32,000 nucleotides of DNA from Erysipelotrichaceae bacterium (GCA_963676105.1 OY781039.1:1140001-1172000), one strand, 5' to 3'; counted from the first letter of the stretch, positions 7,268 to 32,000 are shown. Notes: a model not told the origin generated them from the letters alone. Numbers and translations: made by a program.

Positions 7268-8239
7268 TTATTCAAAGCTAGCAGCATTTAATTTTGTATA
7301 TGAGCCAGGAATGAATTTGTCTGCAGGTACTGTTCCATCTTGTAGAGCTTGCCATGCAGCCATTGTGCTTTCTGCTAAATCTGCTAAAGCAACTAAACCA
7401 CGAATCATTGAAGCATCTGTTGTAGAGTCTTGAACAGCTTGAACTGTGTCAGCTGAAGCACCTACTGCAAAGATACCAACTTTTGAAGCATCTACATCAA
7501 CAGTTTGTGCTAAAACTTCGTTAGCAGCAATCGCAAATGATGCATCATGTACCAGAATAACGTTTACATCTGGATATTCAGCTAAAGCAATATTCATGAG
7601 TTCTTGAACTTTATCTAAAGAGTCACCAGCACCCATTTGATAATCATGAACTAAATCAACTTTTGCATTATCAGCAATCGCTGCTAATCCATCGTCACGT
7701 TGTTGTGCAGTTGGATTTGCTGGGTATGAAATTAGAATAGCTTTTACACTTCCATCTTCTGCATCAGCAAATGTTGTATCTACCCATTCAGAAGCGAGTT
7801 CTGCAGCAGCAATACCTAATGCTGATTCATCTAAGCCAATAAATACGTCATAAGCTTCTTCGTTTTCAAATGGTACAAAAGTAATAATTTTTGTACCTGC
7901 TTCACGAGCAGCTACACAAGCATCTGCTAAACTTGCAGGATCCATTGGTCCAACTAAGATACCTTCGACATTTTGAGTTACTAAGTTTTCAATATCTGAA
8001 ACTTGTTTAGCAACATCCATTTCAGCAGAAGCTGTAATAACTTCGTAACCAGCTTCTCCAAATAGATTTTCCATATTTGTTTGAAGACCAGTAAAGAACT
8101 CTGCCCCTAGTGTCATAATACTTAAACCGAATTTACCGCTTCCTGCTTCTTCTTCGGCAGGTGTATCATTAGAACTACATGCGGTTAACATACCAATACT
8201 TAAAGCAACTACAAATAATAATTTGAATAACTTCTTCAT
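7268..8239 (-). CDS. Sugar ABC transporter substrate-binding lipoprotein (likely rhamnose, by context)
   Basis: 323 aa. Signal peptide with lipobox LTAC, followed by a periplasmic-binding-protein type I-like sequence. First gene after a candidate promoter. Confidence 0.8.
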   Translation of the reverse strand: MKKLFKLLFVVALSIGMLTACSSNDTPAEEEAGSGKFGLSIMTLGAEFFTGLQTNMENLFGEAGYEVITASAEMDVAKQVSDIENLVTQNVEGILVGPMDPASLADACVAAREAGTKIITFVPFENEEAYDVFIGLDESALGIAAAELASEWVDTTFADAEDGSVKAILISYPANPTAQQRDDGLAAIADNAKVDLVHDYQMGAGDSLDKVQELMNIALAEYPDVNVILVHDASFAIAANEVLAQTVDVDASKVGIFAVGASADTVQAVQDSTTDASMIRGLVALADLAESTMAAWQALQDGTVPADKFIPGSYTKLNAASFE

Positions 8240-8272
8240 TGTTTCCTCCTAAAGTTATTAACTTATGGGCAA

Positions 8273-8302
8273 ATTATAGAATTTTTACGAAAGTGCTTAC
8301 AA
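8273..8302 (-). promoter_or_regulatory. Candidate sigma-A promoter for the ABC transporter genes
   Basis: The minus strand reads TTGTAA-18 nt-TATAAT, about 35 nt upstream of the AGGAGG RBS of the binding-protein gene. Confidence 0.4.
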
Positions 8303-8318
8303 TGAACTATTTCTATGA

Positions 8319-9590
8319 TTAGGTGTCTTTTTTTATCATTATCGCGTTTCGTCTATCTAATTGATAAAAGTGAGGTGATTGGATATTAAACAAATAACTA
8401 TTACAGTTCTTAAGATAAACTAAAATATCTTTTTCAACTAAGGTATTAAGCGCTTTTATTAAATGATTCCATTCAAAATCATCCATTTCACTAAAAATAT
8501 CATCAAGAATTAAAACTTGAAAATTCTGCAATGATACTCGATATATCAAAAGTAGTAGCTTTTGTAGATGCGTTAAATTTTGCACATTATCATAATCTTT
8601 GATAATATTTGCGAACCTTCTAGCTTCTTGATAGGTAAAGTCAATTAAACCCTCATTTAAAATGGACAGGTTTGATAATTTTGAATAAACACCTAAGCAT
8701 ACATTTTCTTTTATTGAGAGATTGTTTACTAAATAGTCATCCACATTCTTTGCGATCTCATACGTTTTTTTCTGTTCAAGCCATTTTTCTAAGATTACAT
8801 CGCCATATTCAAAAATTTGAGAACCTGAATGAGTTTTCATTTTCAATCTTTTTTGGAGTTTATTCACATCATTAATATCATTGTCATTAATATAGTCCAT
8901 AAATGAGATCTTATCTTTGAATTCAAAGACTAAGCCCGAATCAGAAATATATTGAATTCGAGTGGCAATATCAACGAATTCATCCATCTCGTCACATAAG
9001 ATTACAAAAGCAACTCCTTGTTTTGAATAGGTTTTAATATTCTCAATATATTGCATTTTTTCTTTATATGAATTTTTTGAAGTTTCATTAACGACAATAA
9101 TTTTTGCGTGATTAATTACAGACTTGGCAATACAAACCATTTGTTGTTCATATTCAGATAAATCTTGTACAAGTTTATTTTTAATATCACTTAAACCTAA
9201 TTTATTCAATATATTGTGTGTTTGCACATGAGCTGCTTTTTGATTGAACATGCTTAATGGATTATTTCGTTCCCTTAAAGCAAATAAATTGTGTTCAATA
9301 GTCATCGATGTAACTAAGCTATTCGTTGATTCAGAACTTGATATACCATTTGAAAAAGCTACTTGAGCGTCATAATTCTGATAATGTTTTTCATTAACAT
9401 ATATTCGTCCATTAAGCGCTTTTGCGTAGCCTAATATTAAATTTGAAACGAGTCTCTTTTTTGAAAAGGTAGAGCTAACAATACAAATGACATCTCCTTC
9501 AAATACTGATAGATCATAATGAAAAAGATGTTCGTTATTTTCATTTTTCGCATCAATATTTTTGAGCCAGAGATATTCTTTTTTTGACAT
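8319..9590 (-). CDS. Degenerate ABC-ATPase-like protein (all nucleotide-binding motifs lost)
   Basis: 423 aa. Aligns by eye with the neighbouring RbsA-type ATPase, but Walker A is SSTFSKKR, the signature is LSEYEQQ and Walker B is IIVVNETS. The second half retains only LTHLQKLLL...VLILDDIFSEMD. The start overlaps the kinase stop (TAATG). Confidence 0.6.
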   Translation of the reverse strand: MSKKEYLWLKNIDAKNENNEHLFHYDLSVFEGDVICIVSSTFSKKRLVSNLILGYAKALNGRIYVNEKHYQNYDAQVAFSNGISSSESTNSLVTSMTIEHNLFALRERNNPLSMFNQKAAHVQTHNILNKLGLSDIKNKLVQDLSEYEQQMVCIAKSVINHAKIIVVNETSKNSYKEKMQYIENIKTYSKQGVAFVILCDEMDEFVDIATRIQYISDSGLVFEFKDKISFMDYINDNDINDVNKLQKRLKMKTHSGSQIFEYGDVILEKWLEQKKTYEIAKNVDDYLVNNLSIKENVCLGVYSKLSNLSILNEGLIDFTYQEARRFANIIKDYDNVQNLTHLQKLLLLIYRVSLQNFQVLILDDIFSEMDDFEWNHLIKALNTLVEKDILVYLKNCNSYLFNIQSPHFYQLDRRNAIMIKKDT

Positions 9591-10366
9591 TATTGTTCTT
9601 TCAACCGGTTGTCATATTTAATGAGTTCTTTATCCGACACACGTGGTACTATGATTTCCATCGTCGTTCCTATATTGATTAGACTCTTAACATTTAACCC
9701 AAAATCATGACCAAAGAACATTTTTAAACGTGCATTTACATTTAACAATGCAATTCCACTTTTTCGTGATAAACGTTCAAATTTGATATCTGAGGACGAC
9801 AGTTTTTCATTAATATTACGAAGTAAATCAGTCTCAATTCCTACACCATTATCCTTAATTTGAATATAAACTTTCTCTTTTGTGCCAAAGATATGTATTG
9901 TGATTAATCCTGGGCTTAATTTATTTTCAAGTCCGTGTGTTATTGCGTTTTCAATGAGTGGCTGAAGTGTCATTTTTGGAATGTAACATTCTTTAAGTTC
10001 TTCCTCTTCAATTTCAATCTCAAGATTTAAACGATCCTCAAATCTAAATTTTTGAATATAATAGTAGTCATTTATATGATTTAGTTCTTCAGAGATTTTA
10101 ACGAAATCACCAGTGCTACTAATACTATATCTAAAAAAACGTGATAGTTTCTCAATCATATTTGCGATTTCGTTTTCGTTATACTTCAAAGCTTCACTTC
10201 GAATTGAATCAAGTGTGTTATATAAAAAATGGGGATTGATTTGACTTTGAAGCATTTTATATTCGATTTCCCAGGTATTTTCACTTGGGCTTAATTTTTG
10301 ACTTTCAATATTACTATCTTCTACCGATGACTTTTTTATACAGTCAATAATTTTCCTTAATTTCAT
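9590..10366 (-). CDS. Histidine kinase catalytic core (YesM/His_kinase-type) lacking any sensor or transmembrane region
   Basis: 258 aa. H-box QINPHFLYNTLDSI with His at residue 46, N-box ENAITHG and G-box KDNGVGI. No hydrophobic segment or HAMP region precedes the H-box. Confidence 0.8.
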   Translation of the reverse strand: MKLRKIIDCIKKSSVEDSNIESQKLSPSENTWEIEYKMLQSQINPHFLYNTLDSIRSEALKYNENEIANMIEKLSRFFRYSISSTGDFVKISEELNHINDYYYIQKFRFEDRLNLEIEIEEEELKECYIPKMTLQPLIENAITHGLENKLSPGLITIHIFGTKEKVYIQIKDNGVGIETDLLRNINEKLSSSDIKFERLSRKSGIALLNVNARLKMFFGHDFGLNVKSLINIGTTMEIIVPRVSDKELIKYDNRLKEQ

Positions 10367-11994
10367 TATGAATACAACTTTCTGTATTCAGATGGTTTAA
10401 TTCCGGTAACTTTTCTAAATAATTTTGAAAAATATTTTTGATCTGGATAGCCCACTCGTGCAGATATTTCTTTAACAGACTCTGCTGTTTCAGCTAAAAG
10501 TTTTTTTGATTTCTCAATACGATATTCCGCCAGGTACTCTGCATAACCTTTACCAAGTTCATTTTTAAATAATTTAGAAAAATAATTTGGAGATAACCCC
10601 ACATGATCAGCAACATCTTCAAGCGTAATAGCTTCGGCATAGTGAGACTCAATAAATTGAATAGCTTTTTCAGTGGGTAAGATATGTACTTGCTTTTGTT
10701 CAAGCAAATAAGTTTCAAAATGATTTTCAATAACTTTTAAGGTTGATCGAATAAAATCCACAAAACTATAGGTATGAGTTGAACTCCACCACCCCTCTAA
10801 CTTTTGTCTTTCAATCTCATCTGAGTTTGCAATGAAGAGTGAGAGAATAGCATCAAGTAAATACTGTTGGAAATCAATCATGGAACCTGGATTTGCACTT
10901 TGGTATTTTTCACATCGACGGATAATCTCTTGATGAATATCATAGATTGTATTTACCTTTAGATATTCATAAGCGTCTTTCAATTGTTCAATTATTTTAT
11001 CGCCAAGTATCTCTTGTGCTGAAAAACTAGGTAAATTTTCAATCATATCGTACGAAATAATTTTGTTTGCACCATAAATAAACTTTGCAGATTCAGCGAA
11101 AATAGCCTCGTCCATAAGGTGGATTATATCGTTTAAATCCAAACTTTGATTACTATAACCAAAGGCTAAATCAAAATCATCAAAAATCTCAGTTAGATTA
11201 CGTATTGAATAATAAATATTCGAAATAATCTGGTTAATATTCGAATCATAATTAGATACGTAATTTACTAAGATAAATATTCCATTTCGACTATAGTGAT
11301 AAATTAGATTTAAATCTTTTGATTCAATACCTTTTAAAATAATTCCTAATTTTTCTCTAAATAAAGAATTTTGGTCCAGTAAGTGATCAATACTGGTTTG
11401 AATATAAATCATTCGATAAGCATTCTCTTCAAATGATTTTGGTAAAATATCAAGAAACAAATTTAGATTAAAAGATCGATGTTGGATTGTACTCATAAAT
11501 AATTGATTAAAAAAATCACTATATTTAATATTATTATATTTATCAAAATATTCATCACGCTCAGATTTGATAATGGTTGTAGATTTTTTATCTTTTATAA
11601 TCTGAATAGATTTATTGATAGCTTCATTCAGTTGAATCTCATCAATAGGTTTTAGAATATAATCCACAACACCATACTGCATAGCGCTTTTCGCATATTC
11701 AAAATGCTTATAACCACTTACAATAATAAAAGAACTCTCAATATTATGCTTTTGACACTGTTCAATTAAGGCTAAACCATCATAACCCGGCATTTTGATA
11801 TCGGTTATGACGATATCTGGTTTATTAGCAATGATACTTTCAAGCGCATCTATTCCGTTATAACAAACATCAACGATTTCAATATTGTGTTGATCCCAAT
11901 GACCAAGAAGACGAACTAAGTCCGCCATTCTCCTTTCATCTTCAGCAATGATACATTTATACTGTTTAGCCATTTTACACCTCACAAACAACAC
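10366..11994 (-). CDS. Response regulator with C-terminal AraC-type HTH (YesN-like)
   Basis: 542 aa. N-terminal receiver (IIAEDE...DIVITDIKMPGYDG...KP) and C-terminal AraC signature (...LSPNYFSKLFK...GYPDQKYFSKLFRK). The true start is probably the MAKQYK methionine at 11973. Confidence 0.85.
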   Translation of the reverse strand: MLFVRCKMAKQYKCIIAEDERRMADLVRLLGHWDQHNIEIVDVCYNGIDALESIIANKPDIVITDIKMPGYDGLALIEQCQKHNIESSFIIVSGYKHFEYAKSAMQYGVVDYILKPIDEIQLNEAINKSIQIIKDKKSTTIIKSERDEYFDKYNNIKYSDFFNQLFMSTIQHRSFNLNLFLDILPKSFEENAYRMIYIQTSIDHLLDQNSLFREKLGIILKGIESKDLNLIYHYSRNGIFILVNYVSNYDSNINQIISNIYYSIRNLTEIFDDFDLAFGYSNQSLDLNDIIHLMDEAIFAESAKFIYGANKIISYDMIENLPSFSAQEILGDKIIEQLKDAYEYLKVNTIYDIHQEIIRRCEKYQSANPGSMIDFQQYLLDAILSLFIANSDEIERQKLEGWWSSTHTYSFVDFIRSTLKVIENHFETYLLEQKQVHILPTEKAIQFIESHYAEAITLEDVADHVGLSPNYFSKLFKNELGKGYAEYLAEYRIEKSKKLLAETAESVKEISARVGYPDQKYFSKLFRKVTGIKPSEYRKLYS

Positions 11995-12000
11995 ATAAGA

Positions 12001-12882
12001 TTAATCGATAAAATACTGTGCAATATCTTTAAGTGCTTCATCCGTTTCTGGTGAAGGAAATAAAGTAAACACATGAAATAAACCTTCCCACTCTTTTAAT
12101 TTTACATCTACGTCAGCCTCTTTACATTTATTGTAAATGAGAATTGCATCATCATATAAAACTTCTTCAGTTCCTACATGAATATAGAGTGGCGGAAAAT
12201 CTTTAAAATCGCCATAAGCGGGTGAAACATAAGGTGAATTAAAATCACTACCTTCATAATAAGGTACGACAGATTCAATGGTTATCATTGGATCACGTTC
12301 ATTACGTTCAGTATGTGACGCTAAATCTAAATTCTGACCAGCAACTGGAGAAAATACACATGTTTTACCAGGACATTCGATTCCATGATCCTTTAAATAT
12401 AGATTAGTTGTTAAAACTAACATAGCTCCAGCTGATTCACCAAACATATAAATATTCTTGGCATCATAACCTTCATTTAGTAAATACTGATAGGCATTCA
12501 CACAATCATTTAATCCTTGAGGGTGCTTTGCTTCTGGCCATTGTCCGTAATCAACAGAATATGCATCCATCTTTGCATTCTTCATTAAATCCATAAACAT
12601 CTTGCGTCGCGACATTACACTTCCAATAGAAAATCCACCACCATGAATAAAAAGAATAATTTTCTCTTTGTTTTTTGTGCCTTTTAAGTGGTAGAATTCA
12701 CCTTTTGTCAAATCATTATCAATGACTTCGATATCAATTAATTCATCTGTATAAGTACCAATCTTTTCATCAATTGATTGACGAGTTACTACAGCTGACT
12801 CGGGTGTTGTCTCTTGTCCTTGGTTTGCCTTTTTTTCATTGGCTAACATTTCGATAAACATTTTTATTTCTTTACTTAACAT
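12001..12882 (-). CDS. Alpha/beta hydrolase, HSL-type esterase
   Basis: 293 aa. Oxyanion-hole HGGGF and nucleophile elbow GESAG motifs. Confidence 0.75.
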   Translation of the reverse strand: MLSKEIKMFIEMLANEKKANQGQETTPESAVVTRQSIDEKIGTYTDELIDIEVIDNDLTKGEFYHLKGTKNKEKIILFIHGGGFSIGSVMSRRKMFMDLMKNAKMDAYSVDYGQWPEAKHPQGLNDCVNAYQYLLNEGYDAKNIYMFGESAGAMLVLTTNLYLKDHGIECPGKTCVFSPVAGQNLDLASHTERNERDPMITIESVVPYYEGSDFNSPYVSPAYGDFKDFPPLYIHVGTEEVLYDDAILIYNKCKEADVDVKLKEWEGLFHVFTLFPSPETDEALKDIAQYFID

Positions 12883-12995
12883 ATTTTGTCTCCTTAAAAG
12901 TGTCTTATTTTATGAATTGTTTTAATATTTTATGATTTGCTTTAATTCTATATTAATTCTATTTCCATCAAATGGATATATGATAGAGTGAAGTT

Positions 12996-13898
12996 ATGAA
13001 AACATACTTAGTTATTGATGTTGGTGGCACTGCCATCAAATATGCTCGCATGAATGAGCAAGCAAAAATTTTAAGCAAAGGGGAAATCGCAACACCACAC
13101 ACTAGTTTAGATGACTTTGTTGATGCTATCGCAAATCTATACAAGCAAAACAATGATGTTGATGGTATCGCAATGAGTGCACCAGGTCGTATTGATGCAG
13201 AAACTGGCTACATGTACACAGGAGGCGCAATTGAATTTAATCGAGAAGTGGCCATGAGCGATTTAATCAGGGCCAAAGTTGGTGTAGAAGTGACTATTGA
13301 TAATGATGCCAAATGCGCAGCGAATGCAGAGGTTTGGAAAGGATCTCTTAAAGATGTTAAATGTGGAATGGTCTTAACCATCGGAACAGGTATTGGTGGT
13401 GCAGTTATCATTGATGGAAGAGTACATCGAGGCCATAATTTCACCTCTGGTGAAGTATCATTCTTACCTGTAACTCTTTTACCTGATGGTCATCCCCTTA
13501 AAATTTGGGCCATGATAAATTCTACTGGTAACTTAATTGAAAACTATGCAAAAGTTAAAAATTTAGATGTTAGTGATGTTAATGGAAAAATCTTCTTTGA
13601 TGCAATTCAAGATAAAGATGTTGAAGCAATCAAAATTCTAGATGATTTTGCTGAAAGTTTTGCGATTGGTTTGTTTACTATTCAAACATTAATTGACACA
13701 GAAACAATTGCGATAGGTGGTGGCATTTCTGCTCAACCTATCTTAATTGAAACCTTGAATAAAAAGACTGATGAACTCTTTGAGAGCCTTAACTGGGCTC
13801 CTCAGAAGAGAATGAACATTGTACCTTGTCAATTTGGTAATGATAGTAATCTTATTGGAGCACTTTATCATCATCTAAATACAATTCATAAACATTAA
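12996..13898 (+). CDS. ROK family sugar kinase
   Basis: 300 aa. N-terminal LVIDVGGTAIKYA ATP-binding motif and central DNDAKCAA and GTGIGGA motifs typical of ROK kinases. Confidence 0.8.
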   Translation: MKTYLVIDVGGTAIKYARMNEQAKILSKGEIATPHTSLDDFVDAIANLYKQNNDVDGIAMSAPGRIDAETGYMYTGGAIEFNREVAMSDLIRAKVGVEVTIDNDAKCAANAEVWKGSLKDVKCGMVLTIGTGIGGAVIIDGRVHRGHNFTSGEVSFLPVTLLPDGHPLKIWAMINSTGNLIENYAKVKNLDVSDVNGKIFFDAIQDKDVEAIKILDDFAESFAIGLFTIQTLIDTETIAIGGGISAQPILIETLNKKTDELFESLNWAPQKRMNIVPCQFGNDSNLIGALYHHLNTIHKH

Positions 13899-22781: not shown

Positions 22782-23726
22782 TTAGAATTTTCTCCAGCAT
22801 TTTAATTCTAAAAATTCAAGTATCCCTTTATTGTCAGTCCCCTCATAATACTCAACGAGTAGTTTTTTAAATTCACTAACACTTTGTTCTGGGACAACCA
22901 GAATGCCTTCACCTTTTGAGATTAAGAAGTGATTTGCAAAAATAATTGCACTTCTTTCGTTCCCATCTTTAAATACTTGCGTTTTCATAATAAACAAACA
23001 CAATTGGATTGCCTCTTTAATGTTAGATAATTCTTCGTTTAAAATGGCGTTAATCGATTCAATAACAATTGTCTCTATTGGAATTGGTGGAATATATGTA
23101 CAACCTCCAATGGTGACGGGTATTGACCTAATTCTTCCGCCATCAACGATTAACCCTTCATTTACTAACTTACCGATATGACACAAGATTTGATAATCAC
23201 TTTCAAAATTTATGAAATCATTATCCAGAATAAATTCCCAAGCGTGTTTTAGATTTAATATTTTCTGTATATCCTTTGGTGTAACTCCATTCACTATACC
23301 ATTTTCAATAATTTCTTCAGTTTGTGGAAAAGAAGTTGCGATACCTTCAAGAACTGCTTGATCATAGATAAGTGATTTAATATTAATTCTTGCGAAGTCC
23401 AAATTAAGAACAACTCTATTATTCAGTGTCTGTTCTTTATAATCGAGCTTTGCTAGATCCTTTTCAATGTGCCGAATTTCACGTCTTAACTCTTTAGCTT
23501 CCCTTGCGTTTCTTAACAATAATTCATACAAATTATCTGAATAAACATCTACATACTTCGATGTTACTTTGCTGCCTACTCTTTTTCGTACATACAAATA
23601 CCTTTGCCCACTAATCTCTTTTACTTCAGGGGTACCATCATACGCCATTAAGCTAAGTCGTGCATTTAAATCAGATTTTAAGTGTAGTAAATTTTGAATT
23701 TCTTGTATTTTATTTACCATATACAC
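22782..23726 (-). CDS. Fic/DOC-family-like protein with a degenerate active-site motif
   Basis: 314 aa. The region QVFKDGNERSAI aligns with the Fic motif HxFx(D/E)GNGRxxR but lacks the His, the second Gly and the last Arg. The likely true start is ATG at 23720 (the track start GTG lies within the AGAGGTG RBS). Confidence 0.6.
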   Translation of the reverse strand: MYMVNKIQEIQNLLHLKSDLNARLSLMAYDGTPEVKEISGQRYLYVRKRVGSKVTSKYVDVYSDNLYELLLRNAREAKELRREIRHIEKDLAKLDYKEQTLNNRVVLNLDFARINIKSLIYDQAVLEGIATSFPQTEEIIENGIVNGVTPKDIQKILNLKHAWEFILDNDFINFESDYQILCHIGKLVNEGLIVDGGRIRSIPVTIGGCTYIPPIPIETIVIESINAILNEELSNIKEAIQLCLFIMKTQVFKDGNERSAIIFANHFLISKGEGILVVPEQSVSEFKKLLVEYYEGTDNKGILEFLELKCWRKF

Positions 23727-23868: not shown

Positions 23869-23877
23869 GAGATATAA

Positions 23878-24100
23878 GGTGTACGTGACAGGAATCGTAT
23901 TACATTACCATAACTTCCCAAACACTACCATTTCATGCCGTTTCGTCCCAAATCTTTCCGAAGCTTCCCATATTAAAACTAGGGGATGATTACGGGTTTG
24001 AAAATTATGATAGATTAACTCTTACCCAAGAGTAATTTAGTTTTGCTTGTTCTATATAAAGTAACAATCTATCTATATGGTAACAATACCCACTCATGTT
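23878..24100 (-). repeat. Cassette-junction repeat A (decayed tRNA-3'-end mimic + ~200 bp arm)
   Basis: aGGTGtaCGTGACAGGAATCG has 3 changes from the consensus TGGTGCGCGTGACAGGAATCG. It is followed by an arm that aligns with copies B and C through ...CCCACTCATGTT. Confidence 0.8.
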
Positions 24101-24144
24101 ATTAACAAATACTTTGATTTTTTCATTTCAGTACATAAATAGTA

Positions 24145-24663
24145 TCATTGCAATATGTAATTAATAATGATGAGATTCTTATACACTAAAATCAAATAGA
24201 CATGATCACTAGGCATATTATCGACTGATTGATCCGCATTAATCGTAAAATACCTAAAACAATTACACCTTAAGTCGAATGGACGTAGATCTATTTTTGC
24301 TGTCCCATTAATTGTGGTTTCTTCTATAAGATTAAGAATTGGAGCACGACCGTCTATCACTTCTTGCTCTTCAATGATTTCATCATTCTCGAGATCATTA
24401 ATGAATTTATAAAAATCATTTTCTTCATTGATTTTTAGAACCATGAAACTTTCATAAATCTGTCCTTCATAAGACACCACAGTATATTGATCTTCTGTTA
24501 TATAAGGAAGAAGCTCAGCATATCTAAAGTAATCAGTAGGTTGATCTATTTTTGGATCAAGTGGATCATCTAGTATAACTGATACAATTAAAATTAGAAT
24601 TATTGTGAGAAATAGCGCAGTCAAGAACATAAAGATATATTCAAAATATTTAGATATTTTCAT
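24145..24663 (-). CDS. Hypothetical membrane-anchored protein
   Basis: 172 aa. A single N-terminal hydrophobic helix (FMFLTALFLTIILILIVSVIL), then an acidic soluble domain. No recognisable family. Confidence 0.5.
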   Translation of the reverse strand: MKISKYFEYIFMFLTALFLTIILILIVSVILDDPLDPKIDQPTDYFRYAELLPYITEDQYTVVSYEGQIYESFMVLKINEENDFYKFINDLENDEIIEEQEVIDGRAPILNLIEETTINGTAKIDLRPFDLRCNCFRYFTINADQSVDNMPSDHVYLILVYKNLIIINYILQ

Positions 24664-24742: not shown

Positions 24743-25930
24743 TTATAATTTAAAATTCAATAAAAAGTCTTCTATATTAATATGTTTAATTCCTTTATAT
24801 GAAAAATCCACGGTATCCATTGATAGAACTAATTTAGGATATGAGTCATTGATAGAATTTAAAACACTGAACTCTCTTTCTCTAGTCGTTTCTGAACCTA
24901 GTAAATAAGATACTTGTATATATAACTTCTCATCATTTTTAGTAGCAATAAAATCAATTTCCTGTTGATTTAACTTTCCGATATTTATAGTGTATCCTCG
25001 TCTTTTAAGTTCGATATAGACAATATTTTCTAAGATTAATTCAATGGCTGCTTCATTATTCCCAACAACGGCTTCTCTAAAACCATGGTCAGCAATAAAG
25101 TATTTTTCTTCTGTTTTTAATAATGCTTTCCCATTGATGTCATATCTTGAAGCTTTATATAATATAAAAGCCTTTTCTAGGATATCAATATAATGAAGTA
25201 TTGTATCAACACTAATTTTTATGTTTTGTGATTTTAGATACTTTGAAATAGACAAAGCTGAAAAAGTTTTAGATGTATTCGCACATAAATAAATGATAAG
25301 TTTTTCTAGTGTCGCTGAATTTCTTATGTCATATCTTTGTATAACATCTTGAAGAACGGCTGATCGAAAACTATCTCTTAGTACAGTCATTGACAAGTCA
25401 TAGTTTAAATCAAAAACAGTTATCGATGGAAGTCCACCAAAAGTTACATAATCTATGAATGTTGCTTTTTTATGATAATCTTTAAACTCTTTATAAGAAA
25501 AAGGGTGAACTAAAATCTCTACATATCTTCCAGCTAGATACGTAGACAAATCAGATGACATTAAGTCCGAATTTGATCCCGTGATATAAATATCAAACTT
25601 ATTCATCGCATGGAAAGCATTGACGGCTTTTTCCCAATTTTTTATTCTTCCTACTTCATCAAGAAACAAGTATAATGGTCCACTATTCTTTTTCTCCCAT
25701 TCTAATACCCTGTTTGTTAAATCTTCGTAGTCATTAATGTTAAAGTTCTCGGGAAGTTCAAAGTTCAGCTTAAGCACATTTATTTTACTTGTAGTATTTT
25801 TTAGTAAATCTTCAATATACATATCTAAAAGAACTGATTTACCGGAACGTCTTAATCCAGTTATAACCTTTACAAAAGGTTTATCTTTATAATCTTTTAA
25901 CTTCTGAATATAGTCTAAACGTTCAACCAT
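24743..25930 (-). CDS. AAA-type ATPase of the AAA_14/DUF4143 kind
   Basis: 395 aa. Walker A GLRRSGKS and Walker B LYLFLDEV, with a C-terminal QEIDFIATKNDEKLYIQV segment resembling the nuclease-like fold tail of this family. Confidence 0.75.
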   Translation of the reverse strand: MVERLDYIQKLKDYKDKPFVKVITGLRRSGKSVLLDMYIEDLLKNTTSKINVLKLNFELPENFNINDYEDLTNRVLEWEKKNSGPLYLFLDEVGRIKNWEKAVNAFHAMNKFDIYITGSNSDLMSSDLSTYLAGRYVEILVHPFSYKEFKDYHKKATFIDYVTFGGLPSITVFDLNYDLSMTVLRDSFRSAVLQDVIQRYDIRNSATLEKLIIYLCANTSKTFSALSISKYLKSQNIKISVDTILHYIDILEKAFILYKASRYDINGKALLKTEEKYFIADHGFREAVVGNNEAAIELILENIVYIELKRRGYTINIGKLNQQEIDFIATKNDEKLYIQVSYLLGSETTREREFSVLNSINDSYPKLVLSMDTVDFSYKGIKHINIEDFLLNFKL

Positions 25931-26111: not shown

Positions 26112-26123
26112 CAATTTGGTACA

Positions 26124-26305
26124 TGATGCGCGTGACAGGAATCGTATTACATTCCCAAATCTTCCCACAGCTTCCCATATTAAAACTAGGGGTAAACTAG
26201 GGTTTTGAAAATTATGATAGATTGATTCTTATTCAAGAGTAATATAGTTTTGTTTGTTTTATTTGAGGCAACAAATCAATGCATACTGTAATAATACTCA
26301 CTCAA
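26124..26305 (-). repeat. Cassette-junction repeat B (tRNA-3'-end mimic with CCA changed to TCA + arm with ~41-bp internal deletion)
   Basis: TGaTGCGCGTGACAGGAATCG plus an arm. Relative to A and C it lacks the segment between two CTTCCCA motifs. Confidence 0.8.
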
Positions 26306-26327
26306 GATTTTACACATACTAAAATTT

Positions 26328-26639
26328 TTAAAATAATTTATCAGTGTCCCTACGATTATATAAAACCCTGATAATGACTACTTTCTTCATTTCTTTATTT
26401 AGATAGTAAAAAATTGAATAATTATCAATGATCATCTGCCTTAGTTCACCAGAACGAGAAGTCTCTTTTCTATACAACTGAAATCTTTCTGGCATCTCGT
26501 TTAACAAATTAATCTTATTTTCAATTCGTTTGAGCTGCTCTATTGCGATAACTGGTGATTGCAGTTCAAAAGCAATATATTCAAAAATACTTCGTAGATC
26601 ACTATCTGCTTGATATGAGACCTCAATATCGAAAGTCAT
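26328..26639 (-). CDS. Type II toxin, RelE/ParE family
   Basis: 103 aa with a sequence typical of the ParE/RelE plasmid-stabilisation family. A 4-nt ATGA overlap with the upstream antitoxin gene. Confidence 0.8.
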   Translation of the reverse strand: MTFDIEVSYQADSDLRSIFEYIAFELQSPVIAIEQLKRIENKINLLNEMPERFQLYRKETSRSGELRQMIIDNYSIFYYLNKEMKKVVIIRVLYNRRDTDKLF

Positions 26640-26953
26640 ACATTATAATCTTTGAAGATATCGGAAAAAACTTGTTTAACAGGTTTTACTCTACCTTCAT
26701 CCATATCTTTTAAACCTTTTGCCAATTCTGTGTCTATTTGTTCAATGGTCATACTACTCATATCTATTAATTTTGGTGTTGGAATTTTTACATCAAAAGG
26801 TAAACCTTTGTTAAGGATTATTTGTTTATAAAACATATTAATAGCATTGGATGCAGGTATACCAAGAATCGAGAGAATATTCTCTGCTTGTTCTTTGACC
26901 TCTGGCTCAATTCTTGCATATAGATTTGCTGTTTTTATTGCCATATCGGACAC
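26636..26953 (-). CDS. Type II antitoxin, RelB/DinJ family
   Basis: 105 aa. The N-terminal ribbon-helix-helix-like ...NLYARIEPEVKEQAENILSILGIPASNAINMFYKQI... is typical of DinJ/RelB. Confidence 0.8.
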   Translation of the reverse strand: MSDMAIKTANLYARIEPEVKEQAENILSILGIPASNAINMFYKQIILNKGLPFDVKIPTPKLIDMSSMTIEQIDTELAKGLKDMDEGRVKPVKQVFSDIFKDYNV

Positions 26954-27044: not shown

Positions 27045-27074
27045 TTTTTGTGCAGTTACTAATAAACAAACAAA

Positions 27075-27098
27075 AGAGGTTCTCAATTGAGAACCTCT
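27075..27098 (-). terminator. Junction terminator C
   Basis: AGAGGTTCTC-AATT-GAGAACCTCT, a perfect 10-bp stem. The minus strand continues TTTTGTTTGTTTATT. Confidence 0.8.
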
Positions 27099-27110
27099 AA
27101 TTTGTATACA

Positions 27111-27334
27111 TGGTGCGCGTGACAGGAATCGCATTACATTCCCAAAACTTCCCAAACTCTACCATTTCATGCTGTTTCGTCCCAAATCTTTCCGAAGCTT
27201 CCCATATTAAAACTAGGGGTGGACTAGGGGTATGAAAATTATGATAGATTAACTCTTACCGAAGAGTAATTTAGTTTTGTTTGTTCTATATAAAGTAACA
27301 AGTCTATGCATACGGTAATAATACCCACTCATGT
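27111..27334 (-). repeat. Cassette-junction repeat C (intact tRNA-3'-end mimic + full arm)
   Basis: The reverse complement of 27111-27131 is CGATTCCTGTCACGCGCACCA. The arm contains 4 TTCCCA-type motifs, 2 ACTAGGGG motifs 11 bp apart, and a plus-strand hairpin with a T-tract. Confidence 0.85.
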
Positions 27335-27436
27335 TTTTCCACCGTAGTACAGGACATTACATTTATAGATATAACAACAATACCAATACATGGTTTTCAT
27401 GAAAATACAGTTTGTGTACATTAATTTTGAAACTGA

Positions 27437-27772
27437 TTAATTATATACCAAAATTAATAAAGCAAGATAGATAAGAATAATCTCAAAAACGATCAATAAA
27501 GAAAAAACTTTGTAATAATTCGTTGTACTAACTTTACTGATACTATCGATTATAACAATACAAATCAAAGACAAAAACACTATTAGATATAAATGCCAAT
27601 TATTTCGCCATACACAATATATTAATATTGCATTTAAAATAGAAAATATTTTAAAATTTTCTCTTCTATGCATATTTAAGCGATATTTAAACGATTGAAA
27701 CAATGGTAAAAACAAAATTATTACAAATATATCTACCCATACATTTAGATTTTCTAAATTATAATTTATCAA
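27437..27772 (-). CDS. Small multi-pass membrane protein (candidate immunity/partner protein)
   Basis: 111 aa with 3-4 hydrophobic segments. Lies 22 nt downstream of the secreted-protein gene. Confidence 0.5.
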   Translation of the reverse strand: MINYNLENLNVWVDIFVIILFLPLFQSFKYRLNMHRRENFKIFSILNAILIYCVWRNNWHLYLIVFLSLICIVIIDSISKVSTTNYYKVFSLLIVFEIILIYLALLILVYN

Positions 27773-27794
27773 TTTCGTAACTGCTCTTATCTAC

Positions 27795-28397
27795 TTACCA
27801 AAATCCAATTGCTGGATTTGGAAAAGCGCCATTCCAATCAATTCCTAAATAAAGACCTTGCCTTCTTACTGAAGATTGTATTACATAATAAACTATTGTA
27901 CCAGCGCCTACTAACCCAACAAGCATACCAAGTGCAGTCCCGACACCTGGGTAAACACTTCCCAAAGCTGTTAATGCCGCAGTTATAGCTGCTGGGCCAA
28001 TTTCTGCTGCAGCAAATAATGTCATCATCACTTCAGAATATGTTAAGTAAACCTTCCAATCCGAAATAAAAACTCTTGTATTTAACATTTTTCCACTACT
28101 ATAAATATTACTCAAAAAAATAATATTGTTTAATCTATTACCAAAATCTGTTGAAAATCCATATGTTTCAATAATATATTCAATGGATTCAGATAAAACT
28201 AGTTTACCTTCATGATCGAAAGTAAAATACTGATAAATTTCTGATAAATTATTTAAAAAAATTTGATCAGTTATACTTATCACGTCAGAGTAACTGCTCA
28301 CAACATATTCTTCCATCTCTACGTTAGTAGAAGCATTAACAGGACTAGCTAAACTAATAAAAAACAATAATACAAATAAACTTTTTAAAACTTTCAT
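27795..28397 (-). CDS. Secreted protein with a Gly/Ala-rich hydrophobic C-terminal region (module 1 cargo)
   Basis: The track ORF starts at TTG 28412, but ATG 28397 follows the AAAGGAAG RBS. Signal peptide MKVLKSLFVLLFFISLASPVNA|ST. The C-terminus ...AAEIGPAAITAALTALGSVYPGVGTALGMLVGLVGAGTIVYYV... forms two small-xxx-small-rich helices. Confidence 0.6.
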   Translation of the reverse strand: MKVLKSLFVLLFFISLASPVNASTNVEMEEYVVSSYSDVISITDQIFLNNLSEIYQYFTFDHEGKLVLSESIEYIIETYGFSTDFGNRLNNIIFLSNIYSSGKMLNTRVFISDWKVYLTYSEVMMTLFAAAEIGPAAITAALTALGSVYPGVGTALGMLVGLVGAGTIVYYVIQSSVRRQGLYLGIDWNGAFPNPAIGFW

Positions 28398-28442
28398 AAA
28401 TCTTCCTTTCAACTTAAAATCTTAAATTAAAAATATTTATAA

Positions 28443-28508
28443 CTAAACTCTTGGAATCTTATAATCAAATAACGATATAAGCCATAATAGTAAATCTAAA
28501 TCACCCAT
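28443..28508 (-). CDS. 21-codon ORF MGDLDLLLWLISLFDYKIPRV (candidate signalling pro-peptide), copy 1
   Basis: Below the ORF-track length cutoff. It has a strong SD AAGGGAGGA 8 nt upstream of the ATG. It is divergent from the XRE/TPR regulator and upstream of the secreted-protein gene. Copy 2 differs by two nucleotides in one codon (CTT vs TTA), both encoding Leu. Confidence 0.5.
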   Translation of the reverse strand: MGDLDLLLWLISLFDYKIPRV

Positions 28509-28545
28509 TTTTTTATTCCTCCCTTAGAATAATTATAATTTAAAT

Positions 28546-28555
28546 AATCATGATT
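28546..28555. promoter_or_regulatory. Palindromic box AATCATGATT in the divergent promoter region
   Basis: A perfect 10-bp palindrome 8 nt upstream (minus sense) of a TATAAT hexamer (28532-28537) that precedes the small ORF. Conserved in copy 2 (31280-31289). Confidence 0.35.
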
Positions 28556-28582
28556 CTTGTCTATTCTTTTTTTTGATTTTAA

Positions 28583-29854
28583 ATGTTAAAGAGTCTATTA
28601 TTAGATATCATGAGCGACAAATATAAAAACAATGGCTTTAACATTACAAAATTAATCATTGATCAAAGAAAACAGCTTAAATTATCTTTAAGAGAACTTT
28701 CTCAACTAACTAAATATAGTTATCAAACATTATCTAAATATGAAACAGGTGGTATTGAATTAAATAAGAACAATCGAGTAGTTCTATTTGAACACCTACA
28801 CATAAATGCAGATGACGTTGATTATTTATCCAATGACTTTAAACAAGATTTAGACTTACTGTTTGAATCGATTGTATATGACGAACAAGCTGAAATAAGT
28901 TCACTTTTCTCCAGAATTAAGAAAGCTGAAGAATATTTAGATTACACTAAATTTAGAGAAGAGTTTATTACGCTAAAAATCATTGTATCAATCATCAATA
29001 ATGAATCTATATCACAGGAAATGTTGAATGAATCACAATTCAATTCTTTTAAGCTATCTCTTCAACAATGGATCTATGATTATATCGCTATTTATTACCT
29101 CAAAAACAATGATCTTATTAGGGCTGTAAAATATATTGATAAAGCGATATCTCTTGGGGTTCATGAATCAAATGTTGGACTTGTCAATTACCATGCAGGA
29201 ATCATCTATTCTGTCTATGGACAACTTTTAAAAGCTAGACACTATTTAGAAACAGCAGAAACTCACTTCATAAAACAAAGAAACAATATAAGACTTATTA
29301 ATCTTCAAATACAACTAACAACGGTTGAATCAAAACTAGGACAAGTCAATAAAGCACGAGCATCTTATCTTAGACTGTTAAAAGACATCGAAAAAATTAA
29401 TGATCACTATTCATTAAATGTTGTGTATCATAATCTATCCTGGTTGGAATATCGCCAAGAAAACTTTCAAGTTTCATTAGACTATCTAGATAAACTTGAG
29501 AAATCTCAAACATTAGACGAAAATGATCTCATCACCAAAATGTTATGTTTAACAGAACTTGAACAATTTGATGAATCTGATTCTATTTACAAAAACAACA
29601 CAATCTTGGATACAATGTATAAATTATATAGTGAGATTATTCACTTAGAAAATATCCATAAGATTGATAAAAACTATGAAGCGAAATGTATGGAACTTTA
29701 TCACATTATTAAAGATAAAAGAGACTTTGAAAATATTGAAATCGTTATCTTAAAACTACTAGATTACTACGAAAAGAAGCGTTTATATAAGAAAGCCTAT
29801 GAACTCACCAAAGAACTTTATAGTTACATAGATTGGGTGTATCAACTCGATTAA
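28583..29854 (+). CDS. XRE-type HTH + TPR-like transcriptional regulator (RNPP/Rgg-like architecture), copy 1
   Basis: 423 aa. N-terminal HTH ...LSLRELSQLTKYSYQTLSKYETG... and a C-terminal ~330 aa with repeated helical TPR-like units (…YYLKNNDLIRAVKYIDKAISLG…GIIYSVYGQLLKARHYLETA…). The alternative start is ATG 28610. Confidence 0.7.
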   Translation: MLKSLLLDIMSDKYKNNGFNITKLIIDQRKQLKLSLRELSQLTKYSYQTLSKYETGGIELNKNNRVVLFEHLHINADDVDYLSNDFKQDLDLLFESIVYDEQAEISSLFSRIKKAEEYLDYTKFREEFITLKIIVSIINNESISQEMLNESQFNSFKLSLQQWIYDYIAIYYLKNNDLIRAVKYIDKAISLGVHESNVGLVNYHAGIIYSVYGQLLKARHYLETAETHFIKQRNNIRLINLQIQLTTVESKLGQVNKARASYLRLLKDIEKINDHYSLNVVYHNLSWLEYRQENFQVSLDYLDKLEKSQTLDENDLITKMLCLTELEQFDESDSIYKNNTILDTMYKLYSEIIHLENIHKIDKNYEAKCMELYHIIKDKRDFENIEIVILKLLDYYEKKRLYKKAYELTKELYSYIDWVYQLD

Positions 29855-29911
29855 TTTATGAACATCTTTTAAATTGATTTTTTCTTCTTTAAATTAAACA
29901 GTAGAAACAAA

Positions 29912-29935
29912 AGAGGTTCTCAATTGAGAACCTCT
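29912..29935 (-). terminator. Junction terminator D (also positioned to terminate the + strand regulator gene)
   Basis: Same AGAGGTTCTC-AATT-GAGAACCTCT hairpin as terminator C. The minus strand continues TTTTGTTTCTACTGTTT. Confidence 0.75.
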
Positions 29936-29947
29936 AATTTGTCTACA

Positions 29948-29967
29948 TGGTGCGCGTGACAGGATTC
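29948..29967 (-). repeat. tRNA-3'-end mimic D (intact core, different arm)
   Basis: TGGTGCGCGTGACAGGA is identical to copy C, and the ~60 bp to its left (including the terminator) is identical to C apart from one base. The sequence to its right is unrelated to the A-C arm. Confidence 0.75.
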
Positions 29968-30158
29968 AACATTTTACCTGTATATGATCAACATAGACTG
30001 CTATAAACGGCTTAATCCTATCTTTTATGCACCTTAAATATACTTGATTGACATAGAATTACATCAGAGTTCTGCTAGGAGGGGAAATTTAGGTGGAATC
30101 GTAATTTTATTCATATGTAATAATGCATTCTCATGTTTATCTCAAACAATCCATTATC

Positions 30159-30437
30159 TTACTTATTAATTGAATCCTTTAACTCATATAACGTAGCTTT
30201 TTTTGTCGGTCTTCTATTAAAAATAGCTAAGTGAATAAGTAAGATTACAAAAAGTATAAACTGATTTAACCAATTCATCGATAACCAAAACCACCCACCA
30301 TTAATAGCCACAACACTTGCGTTTGTATTATCAACATATTTGGCTAGATTATAGAATAGCGAAATTGAGTTAACAAAAGTTATTACACTTAAAATAAGCA
30401 ATATTAAATCAACATCTTTAAAAAATCTCTTTACCAT
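30159..30437 (-). CDS. Small membrane protein (candidate immunity/partner protein, module 2)
   Basis: 92 aa with 2-3 hydrophobic segments. Lies 10 nt downstream of the module-2 secreted-protein gene and is unrelated in sequence to the 111-aa module-1 protein. Confidence 0.5.
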   Translation of the reverse strand: MVKRFFKDVDLILLILSVITFVNSISLFYNLAKYVDNTNASVVAINGGWFWLSMNWLNQFILFVILLIHLAIFNRRPTKKATLYELKDSINK

Positions 30438-30447
30438 ATAATTCCTT

Positions 30448-31131
30448 TCAGTACCTTAAATGTGGATTACACAAACTAGATAATACTCCAAGATACCCCA
30501 CATTGGGCACCCATCTTTCTAAATCCCATACTTTCTCAACTACGAGTTGTTTGTGGCACATATATTGATCATATAAACTACCATTGTCAATTTGAATCCC
30601 AATATAAATCGTCTTCAATTCACTCCATGCTAAATTTGCTGCAAAATCAAGCACTCTAACTGATAGTTTAGGATCCAAACTATATGTCCAATAGTTATTT
30701 CTTAAATGATATATATGCGAATAGAAATATTCATTTACAGTGCTTAAAGAAAATGTACTAAATACGTAAACATTTGAACTCGACACACTTACATTCTGTG
30801 ATACTTCATCTAGTAAATCTTTCAAAGCTTCACTCTGTTCAAATTTATTATCTGACTGATTATAAATATATGATTCTAATCTTGAATTAACATCTTGTAT
30901 CCATTTCTCGTTTTGAATAACAAAATCGCTAAGATCCTCTAATTTTAAGTTCTCTATTAAAACCATATCAGTGATTAATTGATCTCTATATTGAAATGTT
31001 TCATTATTTTCTTCTAAGATTGACTCTTCTTCCTTTGTATATAAATCTGGCATCAAAACTGTGCTCGCATTCACAGGACTAGCTAAACTAATAAAAAACA
31101 ATAATACAAATAAACTTTTTAAAACTTTCAT
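30448..31131 (-). CDS. Secreted protein, module 2 cargo (same signal peptide, unrelated mature domain)
   Basis: ATG 31131 follows the same RBS as copy 1, and the signal peptide is identical through ...SPVNA|ST. The mature part is unrelated to copy 1. The C-terminal ...YMCHKQLVVEKVWDLERWVP... loosely recalls the DUF2599-type CH...WxLE motif (low confidence, from memory). Confidence 0.6.
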   Translation of the reverse strand: MKVLKSLFVLLFFISLASPVNASTVLMPDLYTKEEESILEENNETFQYRDQLITDMVLIENLKLEDLSDFVIQNEKWIQDVNSRLESYIYNQSDNKFEQSEALKDLLDEVSQNVSVSSSNVYVFSTFSLSTVNEYFYSHIYHLRNNYWTYSLDPKLSVRVLDFAANLAWSELKTIYIGIQIDNGSLYDQYMCHKQLVVEKVWDLERWVPNVGYLGVLSSLCNPHLRY

Positions 31132-31176
31132 AAATCTTCCTTTCAACTTAAAATCTTAAATTAAAAATATTTATAA

Positions 31177-31242
31177 CTAAACTCTTGGAATCTTATAATC
31201 AAATAACGATATTAACCATAATAGTAAATCTAAATCACCCAT
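31177..31242 (-). CDS. 21-codon ORF MGDLDLLLWLISLFDYKIPRV, copy 2
   Basis: Same peptide as 28443-28508, with a synonymous Leu codon difference and the same SD. Confidence 0.5.
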   Translation of the reverse strand: MGDLDLLLWLISLFDYKIPRV

Positions 31243-31316
31243 CTTTTTATTCCTCCCTTAGAATAATTATATTTTAAATAATCATGATTCTTGTCTATTC
31301 TTTTTTTTGATTTTAA

Positions 31317-32000
31317 ATGTTAAAGCGTATAATATTAGATAATATGAGCGACACTATATCAAATAATGGCTTTAACATTACAAAATTAATCATTGATCAA
31401 AGAAAACAGCTTAAATTATCTTTAAGAGAACTTTCTCAACTAACTAAATATAGTTATCAAACATTATCTAAATATGAAACAGGTGGTATTGAATTAAATA
31501 AGAACAATCGAGTAGTTCTATTTGAACACCTACACATAAATGCAGATGACGTTGATTATTTATCCAATGACTTTAAACAAGATTTAGACTTACTGTTTGA
31601 ATCGATTGTATATGACGAACAAGCTGAAATAAGTTCACTTTTCTCCAGAATTAAGAAAGCTGAAGAATATTTAGATTACACTAAATTTAGAGAAGAGTTT
31701 ATTACGCTAAAAATCATTGTATCAATCATCAATAATGAATCTATATCACAGGAAATGTTGAATGAATCACAATTCAATTCTTTTAAGCTATCTCTTCAAC
31801 AATGGATCTATGATTATATCGCTATTTATTACCTCAAAAACAATGATCTTATTAGGGCTGTAAAATATATTGATAAAGCGATATCTCTTGGGGTTCATGA
31901 ATCAAATGTTGGACTTGTCAATTACCATGCAGGAATCATCTATTCTGTCTATGGACAACTTTTAAAAGCTAGACACTATTTAGAAACAGCAGAAACTCAC
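31317..32000 (+). CDS. XRE-type HTH + TPR-like regulator, copy 2 (partial, runs off the right edge)
   Basis: Not in the ORF track. ATG 31317 gives MLKRIILDNMSDTISNNGFNITKLIIDQRKQLKLS... From 31365 to 32000 the DNA appears identical to 28631-29266. Confidence 0.7.
   Translation, partial: MLKRIILDNMSDTISNNGFNITKLIIDQRKQLKLSLRELSQLTKYSYQTLSKYETGGIELNKNNRVVLFEHLHINADDVDYLSNDFKQDLDLLFESIVYDEQAEISSLFSRIKKAEEYLDYTKFREEFITLKIIVSIINNESISQEMLNESQFNSFKLSLQQWIYDYIAIYYLKNNDLIRAVKYIDKAISLGVHESNVGLVNYHAGIIYSVYGQLLKARHYLETAETH

Follow-up and report, generated by a model that had tools for sequence, protein, structure and literature searches.

Organization of the locus

The 32,000-nucleotide stretch of an Erysipelotrichaceae bacterium genome considered here (GCA_963676105.1, OY781039.1:1140001-1172000; the whole of it is called the window, and positions are counted from its first letter) carries at its right end two modules in which a regulator gene on the plus strand is divergent from a 21-codon open reading frame (ORF), a gene for a secreted protein and a gene for a small membrane protein on the minus strand. 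A sequence-only reading had described the pair as a duplicated candidate peptide quorum-sensing unit, and the ORF map together with the raw sequence agrees with two modules of equal layout at the coordinates it gave. The closest named relative is an uncultured Erysipelotrichaceae metagenome-assembled genome (MAG). Signal peptides and membrane segments, in the list below and throughout, were judged by hydropathy and sequence only; HTH stands for helix-turn-helix and TPR for tetratricopeptide repeat.

Module 1
27437..27772, minus strand: small membrane protein 1, 111 aa from a TTG start, three hydrophobic segments
27795..28397, minus strand: cargo 1, secreted protein of 200 aa, codons of a Sec-type signal peptide at 28332-28397
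28443..28508, minus strand: 21-codon ORF, candidate pheromone precursor gene, peptide MGDLDLLLWLISLFDYKIPRV
28509..28609, no strand: putative divergent promoter/operator region between regulator and small ORF, from reading of the sequence
28610..29854, plus strand: regulator, XRE HTH and nine TPR repeats, 414 aa, identical to P0129
Module 2
30159..30437, minus strand: small membrane protein 2, 92 aa, two hydrophobic segments
30448..31131, minus strand: cargo 2, 227 aa, signal peptide as in cargo 1, C-terminal DUF2599
31177..31242, minus strand: 21-aa precursor gene, same peptide as copy 1
31344..32000, plus strand: regulator, alternative start at 31317, runs past the window end

The duplicated block (28333-29266 versus 31067-32000, 97-100% identity) runs from the signal-peptide codons through the 21-codon ORF and the intergenic region and on into the regulator, and identity drops abruptly at 28332/28333, immediately past the signal-peptide cleavage site. 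Hydropathy and coordinates bear out the Sec-type signal peptide ending VNA|ST and the membrane protein gene that follows, which begins 22 nt past the secreted gene in module 1 and after a 10-nt gap in module 2. The true ATG of the secreted genes gives MKVLKSLFVLLFFISLASPVNA|ST, the TTG at 28412 merely taking in the Shine-Dalgarno (SD) sequence; the start codon of membrane protein 1 is uncertain, its SD being weak.

The regulator of module 2 is intact in the source genome, where it corresponds to P0001, a full-length protein of 423 aa encoded on the same 1.96-Mb contig and matching across all 228 residues available in the window. Compared with copy 1, P0001 shows 12 differences, confined to residues 4-15 and 385-404, and the central ~370 residues are identical. 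The N-terminal divergence is visible in the window itself (28592-28630 versus 31326-31364). Such end-only differences suggest that the central part was subject to gene conversion or recombination, or that the termini have diversified. The two precursor genes encode Leu10 differently, copy 1 with CTT and copy 2 with TTA; the double change is synonymous.

The regulator and its relatives

The length of 423 aa first attributed to the regulator is obtained only from an in-frame ATG upstream, at 28583, and translation from the ATG at 28610 yields 414 aa; relatives are annotated from the MSD start. Its description as an XRE HTH followed by a TPR region is supported by Pfam, with matches to HTH_3 and to the TPR families TPR_12, TPR_2 and TPR_10, and by structure prediction. 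The TPR matches are sub-threshold in the window regulator and strong in relatives, TPR_12 being found in 36 of 53 family members. Close homologues are few (six, at 76-97% identity), and an exhaustive profile search brought together 105 relatives, mostly of 400-420 aa. From a scan of species-representative genomes the sole true relative was that of an Erysipelotrichaceae MAG (L010; related loci are given L numbers), in which the DNA downstream of the regulator holds housekeeping-type genes only.

A first AlphaFold2 model from the six close homologues reached a predicted local distance difference test score (pLDDT) of 62 and was superseded by a model built on a 53-sequence alignment (pLDDT 92.7, predicted template-modelling score 0.88). 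The latter displays a five-helix HTH, then about 18 antiparallel helices forming nine TPR-like pairs. When this model was compared with the PDB by Foldseek, the best 20 matches were all Rap or NprR, and the peptide-bound forms came first, with template-modelling (TM) scores normalised to the target of 0.77 for RapJ-PhrC, 0.75 for NprR-NprX and 0.74 for the Rap of phage phi3T, and root-mean-square deviations of 4-5 A. These closest, peptide-bound structures lie at 0.71-0.77 and NprR overall at 0.68-0.75 on the same scale. AimR ranks next, and the neighbouring structures include Rap proteins from pLS20 and from phages. Generic TPR proteins (LGN, OGT and similar) score 0.37-0.62, mostly 0.4-0.5, and no structure of Rgg, ComR or RopB occurs within the top 50 fold matches. 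The predicted C-terminal part is in this respect RRNPP-like rather than a generic TPR fold, as the sequence-only reading had expected.

Profile comparisons point the same way. A PDB search based on the six close homologues gave no match and was superseded by those with 13- and 53-sequence alignments. The narrow profile, a conservative set of 13 sequences made up of relatives at E<=1e-26, retrieves NprR at E=4e-11 over residues 66-396, its best match among natural PDB sequences; the broad profile of 53 sequences retrieves NprR at 1e-34, Rap proteins at about 1e-18 and PlcR at 1.5e-14. Identity with NprR is about 14%. In the hidden Markov model alignment, the regulator has Tyr194 and Asn275 at the positions of the NprR peptide contacts Tyr193 and Asn275, S274-N275 of NprR standing opposite H274-N275. 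In NprR, Asn275 forms hydrogen bonds with the peptide backbone, and this Asn is kept in all RNPP proteins (PMC3763537). It is at least 90% conserved across the 53-sequence family, so that the conserved peptide-binding Asn of RRNPP(A) receptors is present at sequence level. Other contacts are not kept (Asn194 is replaced by His and Glu241 by Lys242). At 414 aa with TPR repeats, the regulator also lies within the 250-500 aa range of such receptors.

From the NprR profile match and the partial conservation of contact residues, the regulator is best placed, as a distant relative, in the nine-TPR NprR/Rap clan; it is not an orthologue of NprR, nor is it of the Rgg type. This clan is clan B of RRNPPA (PMC12700828). 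The sequence-only reading had invoked both Rap/NprR/PlcR/PrgX and Rgg/ComR as models; the comparison holds for the NprR/Rap clan, and membership of the Rgg/ComR type was rejected on fold (nine TPRs) and length (414 aa).

The divergent small ORF

The 21-codon ORF is preceded by a strong SD, GGGAGGA, 8 nt upstream, as had been noticed from the sequence, and has no possible start further upstream, since the codons in frame ahead of its ATG are those of the SD itself. It lies ~100 nt from the regulator start, and both its position and its C-terminal motif are kept across clades. It represents the directly adjacent small propeptide gene (10-100 aa) by which RRNPP(A) systems are recognized; the ~50 nt 3' of the regulator hold only a 4-codon ORF, the peptide gene being instead upstream and divergent.

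Presence of the small ORF in homologous loci had been named as a check on the idea, and it is found in all nine clade-A copies as MGDL[D/N]LL[L/I]WL[I/M]SLFD[Y/N]KI[P/L]R[V/I]. In the seven of these copies that were aligned, substitutions are of the coding type, with 5, 1 and 7 variable columns at codon positions 1, 2 and 3, and residues 9-18 undergo synonymous changes only, including the CTT/TTA exchange at Leu. Beyond clade A, regulators only 31-48% identical also adjoin a divergent, SD-preceded short ORF ending in the shared motif [D/E]-x-x-x-P-[K/R]-[I/V/F]-stop. The peptides read from such loci are:

Second module of L001: MFELYYLIIDLFDMVLPKF
L013: MLEIIIIILESVLPKI
L015/L016: MINQFYCLIQLFESVMPKF
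L023: MEELNFIYWLISLFDNKYPKI
L014: MNGFYGFMVELLELVLP..., ending at the contig edge

In four further loci (L025, L026, L027, L029) the precursor has 35 aa and a Sec-type leader, which by inspection consists of an MKK n-region and an 18-residue hydrophobic core (e.g. MKKLMVVTLLCLLSFGFVSIGSPVVSPMDWVYPKI). The motif was first defined post hoc, L023 and L025-L029 being outside the defining set; in the form [D/E]xx[hydrophobic]P[K/R][hydrophobic]-stop it turned up in 2-4 of 20000 shuffles per intergenic region. The leader-bearing form, together with the constant distance from motif to stop, suggests that the small-ORF product is an exported pheromone whose activity would reside in the last 7-9 residues and their free carboxylate, as in PapR, SHP and XIP.

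This conservation also bears on a different explanation, in which the regulator would be a peptide-independent XRE/TPR factor and the small ORF a cis-acting leader or upstream ORF, or conserved promoter-proximal DNA. Many HTH-TPR proteins have no known peptide ligand, one related locus (L020) lacks the motif, and in clade A the non-coding surroundings are about as conserved as the small ORF itself (25 of 100 versus 13 of 66 variable columns). On the other hand, the codon-position pattern is that of a coding sequence, the amino-acid motif persists where the DNA is unalignable and the regulators are 31-48% identical, including the 35-aa leader form, the RNPP peptide-contact Asn is kept and the predicted fold is nearest to peptide-bound Rap and NprR. 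Because the motif is conserved across clades, we regard a peptide-independent regulator as quite improbable.

Promoter region and direction of control

On the minus strand, a -35-like TAGACA (28558-28563) and a -10 TATAAT (28532-28537) can be read upstream of the small ORF, and the promoter scan called TAGACA-17-AATTAT. By eye, a comparable (T)AGACA...TAyAAT arrangement occurs in four clades. From the small ORF to the secreted-protein gene no terminator was found, and strong hairpins first occur at the cassette boundaries described below. Between the -35-like and -10 elements lies a 10-bp palindrome, AATCATGATT (28546-28555), which was considered as a conserved operator and dropped, since L001, L008 and L009 do not conserve it.

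The palindrome, placed where repressor operators typically are, is one of the features that would fit a peptide of opposite or purely internal action: one that inhibits or antagonizes the regulator in the way PrgQ/iCF10 acts on PrgX, or that serves as an intracellular self-timer or anti-repressor. A regulator divergent from a ~21-23-codon ORF that heads an operon for exported proteins is also the layout of prgX/prgQ, which the modules share, and the 16-21-aa peptide forms have no recognizable export signal. More speculatively, the signal peptide, strikingly conserved over unrelated cargo, could itself yield a hydrophobic peptide; enterococcal pheromones derive from lipoproteins. However, the palindrome is not kept in other clade-A loci, and the occurrence of the C-terminal motif behind a canonical Sec-type leader in a sister clade argues that the motif is exported. 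The sequence gives no way to tell an activator from an inhibitor. On balance we find this account unlikely, though it is the strongest competitor of an exported, activating pheromone and keeps some weight for the leaderless forms.

Secreted proteins and small membrane proteins

The signalling unit had been linked to a secreted protein and a membrane protein, and a Sec-signal cargo followed by a small membrane protein is indeed seen in most related loci that could be read, with cargo that varies behind a constant block. The signal peptide remains nearly constant even beside regulators only 48% identical, and the cargo differs among strains in which it is flanked by the same two elements, the ParE/RelB cassette and the regulator:

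Window: 200 aa + 111 aa
L001: 248 aa + 61 aa
L007: 162 aa + 64 aa + 61 aa

The statement that neither mature secreted domain is recognizable stands for cargo 1, which like membrane protein 1 has no Pfam or NCBIfam match; it does not for cargo 2, which matches PF10783 (DUF2599) at 7.8e-11, above cut-off, and for which the homologue search returned two close matches only. Cargo 1 belongs to a family of about 14 unannotated homologues with a common C-terminal domain, conserved over ~90 aa and containing two Gly/Ala-rich hydrophobic helices. In other clades the cargo comprises C39-like peptidases with membrane-anchored partners, Gly-rich 287-aa proteins and a protein that is DUF2599-like by its sequence motif. 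Searched with Pfam and NCBIfam, the cargo has no match to known bacteriocin, toxin or immunity families beyond DUF2599 and a sub-threshold C39_2 in relatives' cargo. Antagonist and immunity roles for the cargo and its membrane partners are plausible from this composition and gene order, and membrane protein 1 is a candidate immunity or accessory protein.

Several related loci extend this picture. In L018 (5001-8616), a cargo-1 homologue of 45% identity lies in an agr-like locus with two AgrB genes, an AgrC-like kinase and a LytTR regulator, which indicates that the cargo-1 family is elsewhere under a different quorum-sensing system. It is followed by an 85-aa membrane protein with two segments. 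No similarity was found between membrane protein 1 and the protein encoded downstream of a cargo-1 homologue. The metagenomic array of L001 contains a second module of a different clade (5082-7530) with a partial regulator (7099-7530), a 241-aa secreted protein in which Peptidase_C39_2 falls just below threshold, and two N-terminally anchored proteins of 192 and 167 aa; this cargo type is also present in L013. In L003 (1793-3375; also L001, 3990-4681), a secreted protein of 360 aa without Pfam match is encoded in a cassette downstream of the regulator; its C-terminal Cys/His motifs, YNCHSFAW ... GDHSGIV, are similar to those of papain-like or CHAP amidases. The next gene specifies a lipoprotein of 146-154 aa (lipobox LSSC), and the two look like a further effector and immunity pair.

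Cassettes and boundary repeats

From about 22780 on, the window is organized as an array of five cassettes, carrying a Fic gene, a 172-aa protein with an AAA_14/DUF4143 ATPase, ParE/RelB, module 1 and module 2. The genes outside the modules and the boundary repeats are:

22782-23726, minus strand: Fic-domain protein
23872-24108: boundary repeat, minus-strand core
24145-24663, minus strand: 172-aa N-terminally anchored protein
24743-25930, minus strand: AAA_14/DUF4143 ATPase
26120-26315: boundary repeat, minus-strand core
26328-26639, minus strand: ParE toxin
26636-26953, minus strand: RelB-like antitoxin, overlapping ParE
27068..27342, minus strand: boundary C, with hairpin 27075-27098, core 27107-27128 and a ~200-nt arm
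29905..29967, minus strand: boundary D, with bidirectional hairpin 29912-29935 and core 29944-29965, without the 200-nt arm

On the minus strand, each boundary repeat has an invariant 22-nt core, ATCCTGTCACGCGCACCATGTA, ending ...CACGCGCACCA (...CACCA), then a terminator hairpin of one of two or three sequence types. Core copies lie at about 23873, 26120, 27107 and 29944, with zero expected by chance. Three copies also possess a conserved arm of ~200 nt with TTTGGGAAG-type direct repeats, which gives them the look of arm-type recombinase sites. By these core positions module 1 is enclosed by boundaries C and D, and D has module 2 on its right, as had been noted.

The repeats had been called tRNA-end mimics. 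As repeats they are confirmed; a tRNA identity is not, since ARAGORN and Rfam, the latter at gathering and E<=5 thresholds, detect no tRNA or tmRNA in them. Neither the window nor the related loci scanned yielded a tRNA, tmRNA or integrase, and pattern scans of viral contigs for the repeat gave 0 and 1 match, with no matching tRNA. A tRNA matching the core, if it exists, would end ...TCCTGTCACGCGCACCA. The boundary repeats look like accreted att sites of a tRNA-targeting recombinase.

This setting raises the question whether the unit controls mobility or maintenance of the att-flanked cassettes, in the manner of arbitrium/AimR or of Rap in integrative and conjugative elements, rather than secreted effectors. 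The modules do sit within cassettes bounded by an att-like core with arm-type repeats, adjoining cassettes carry ParE/RelB, Fic and DUF4143 ATPase genes, and AimR and the Rap proteins of pLS20 and phages are among the structural neighbours of the regulator. Yet no integrase, excisionase or relaxase was found in the cassettes or the window, the sole genes co-oriented with and downstream of the peptide gene encode the secreted and membrane proteins, and the L025 clade lies in an ordinary chromosomal context beside genes that by eye look flagellar. We give control of mobility very little credence.

The ParE/RelB cassette adjoins the module also in L001, L002 and L007. On the 73-kb metagenomic contig L023, the 48%-identical regulator stands between two ~420-440-aa ORFs resembling the DUF4143 ATPase of the window, and a second secreted protein, DUF2599-like at its C-terminus and carrying the same signal peptide, is followed by a 146-aa membrane protein (142-1395, 4285-5601 and 5932-6896 for these features); the array architecture thus recurs in a more distant organism. 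In the L025 clade (L025, L026, L027, L029) the regulator is at about 3000-4200, and translations of the neighbouring ORFs in L025 resemble, by eye, flagellar genes (fliS, fliD) and csrA. The left part of the window (904-13898) is ordinary chromosome, with an FGGY sugar kinase, an alpha-L-rhamnosidase-like protein, an esterase, a ROK protein, a sugar ABC transporter (binding protein, ATPase, permease) and a pair formed by a His_kinase and an AraC-type response regulator.

A proposed receptor-pheromone pair

The anatomy of the modules, the homology and fold of the receptor, the conservation of the peptide gene and its motif, the variability of the cargo and the cassette boundaries are what the analysis shows. 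Taken together, they make it likely, in our judgement, that each module encodes an RRNPP receptor-pheromone pair which autoregulates and drives the adjacent secreted-protein operon. The regulator would be the cytoplasmic receptor, with an XRE HTH and a nine-TPR peptide-binding domain of the NprR/Rap type, and the divergent operon would comprise the 21-codon pheromone-precursor gene, then the Sec-exported protein and the small membrane protein. The peptide, or its C-terminal 7-9 residues (...LFDYKIPRV, free carboxylate), would be exported and accumulate, then be re-imported to bind the TPR groove. Binding would switch the regulator at the shared intergenic promoter, with positive feedback and cargo expression as the presumed direction. 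Since the two modules specify the same peptide and receptors identical over the central ~370 residues, one signal should switch on both cargo operons. The cargo may consist of membrane-active or hydrolytic antagonists with their immunity partners. Regulator, peptide gene, promoter and signal peptide would together act as a constant control-and-export adaptor, behind which mature domains and partner membrane proteins would be exchanged within cassettes bounded by the att-like repeat.

A number of points weigh against such a pair. Arg126 of NprR, which holds the peptide carboxylate and Asp, is Asn131 in the regulator. The 21-aa peptide has an acidic N-terminus and a 9-residue hydrophobic stretch, with neither a Sec leader nor the basic N-terminus of SHP-like peptides, and the window contains no Opp or export genes and no Opp-type peptide permease. 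Precursors of L023 and L025-L029 fit the motif only if Tyr or His is allowed before Pro, and L020, whose regulator is 27% identical, has only a 5-codon ORF without it. The function ascribed to the cargo is drawn from composition, the below-threshold C39_2 and DUF2599; in the L025 clade the 35-aa precursor is followed by an 87-aa zinc-ribbon membrane protein, with no Sec cargo.

Firmicutes sense peptides in the cytoplasm mainly through RRNPP systems, and no link between these systems and Erysipelotrichaceae was found in the literature searched. By sequence and model, the locus, with a nine-TPR receptor of the NprR/Rap clan and a short, signal-less, divergently encoded peptide, appears to represent a previously undescribed branch. 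Surveys tie non-Sec or leaderless peptides to the five-TPR Rgg/PrgX clade of Lactobacillales (PMC12700828, PMC10075063), and the canonical RRNPP signature is a neighbouring Sec-secreted propeptide (PMC10075063). A wider proposal, which we advance tentatively as possible rather than probable, is that of an undescribed nine-TPR RRNPP subfamily centred on Erysipelotrichaceae, in which the precursor would have shrunk from a 35-aa Sec form to 16-21-aa signal-less forms, non-Sec signalling would have arisen independently of the Rgg/PrgX systems of Lactobacillales, and a portable 'sense-and-secrete' adaptor would have its effector and immunity cargo swapped in an integron-like, att-bounded array. Such a receptor family would come with a clear and testable pheromone motif, [D/E]xxxP[K/R][I/V/F]-COOH, and its natural series from leader-bearing to leaderless precursors could serve for studying changes of export route. 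Behind the quorum-controlled adaptor, secreted proteins (DUF2599, the new Gly-rich hydrophobic domain, C39-like peptidases) would be shuffled among gut- or host-associated Erysipelotrichaceae strains, and a synthetic peptide would provide a direct handle for switching on and assaying these cargoes.

Comparison with known systems

Quorum-regulated bacteriocin/immunity loci and polymorphic-toxin cassettes likewise present a secreted protein, then a small multi-pass membrane protein, with hypervariable cargo behind a constant 5' region. A further parallel is the cargo-1 homologue in an agr-type locus with a small membrane protein downstream. These systems differ in that the cargo here matches no family known for bacteriocins, toxins or immunity proteins.

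PlcR/PapR of the Bacillus cereus group is likewise an HTH-TPR activator of a secreted-protein regulon, but PlcR has five TPRs and 285 aa, and papR lies downstream and encodes a 48-aa Sec propeptide. As is proposed for the small-ORF peptide, PapR acts through the last seven residues of its precursor (ADLPFEF), among which a Pro is central.

NprR/NprX of the same group (PMC3763537, PMC12700828) shares with our regulator the plan of an XRE domain and nine TPRs and the length of ~420 aa, and NprR also controls a secreted protein, the NprA protease. In contrast, nprX is downstream of and co-oriented with its receptor gene and encodes a 43-aa Sec propeptide with an internal active heptapeptide, whereas the peptide gene here is divergent and heads the target operon, and its product is of 16-21 aa, leaderless, with the extreme C-terminus as the conserved part. 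As Arg126 of the NprR KRD motif is not kept either, the system falls outside the NprR/NprX subfamily.

In RopB/LCP (SIP) and Rgg/SHP of Lactobacillales (PMC10518010, PMC10075063), the peptide ORF is likewise very short, SD-preceded and divergent from the receptor gene, the regulated genes, often for a secreted protein such as SpeB, lie 3' of the peptide gene on one transcript, and the peptide is not recognizable as a Sec substrate. The layout with target genes co-transcribed downstream of the peptide gene has been validated experimentally for RopB/LCP (PMC10518010). Only the gene layout matches, however: these receptors are five-TPR Rgg folds of about 280 aa, belonging to clan A, and LCPs are purely hydrophobic peptides of 8-10 aa and SHPs have basic N-termini, unlike the acidic N-terminus and charged [D/E]xxxP[K/R]x C-terminus found here. 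In homology the receptor stands nearest to NprR/Rap; in layout and kind of peptide the closest systems are RopB/LCP and Rgg/SHP.

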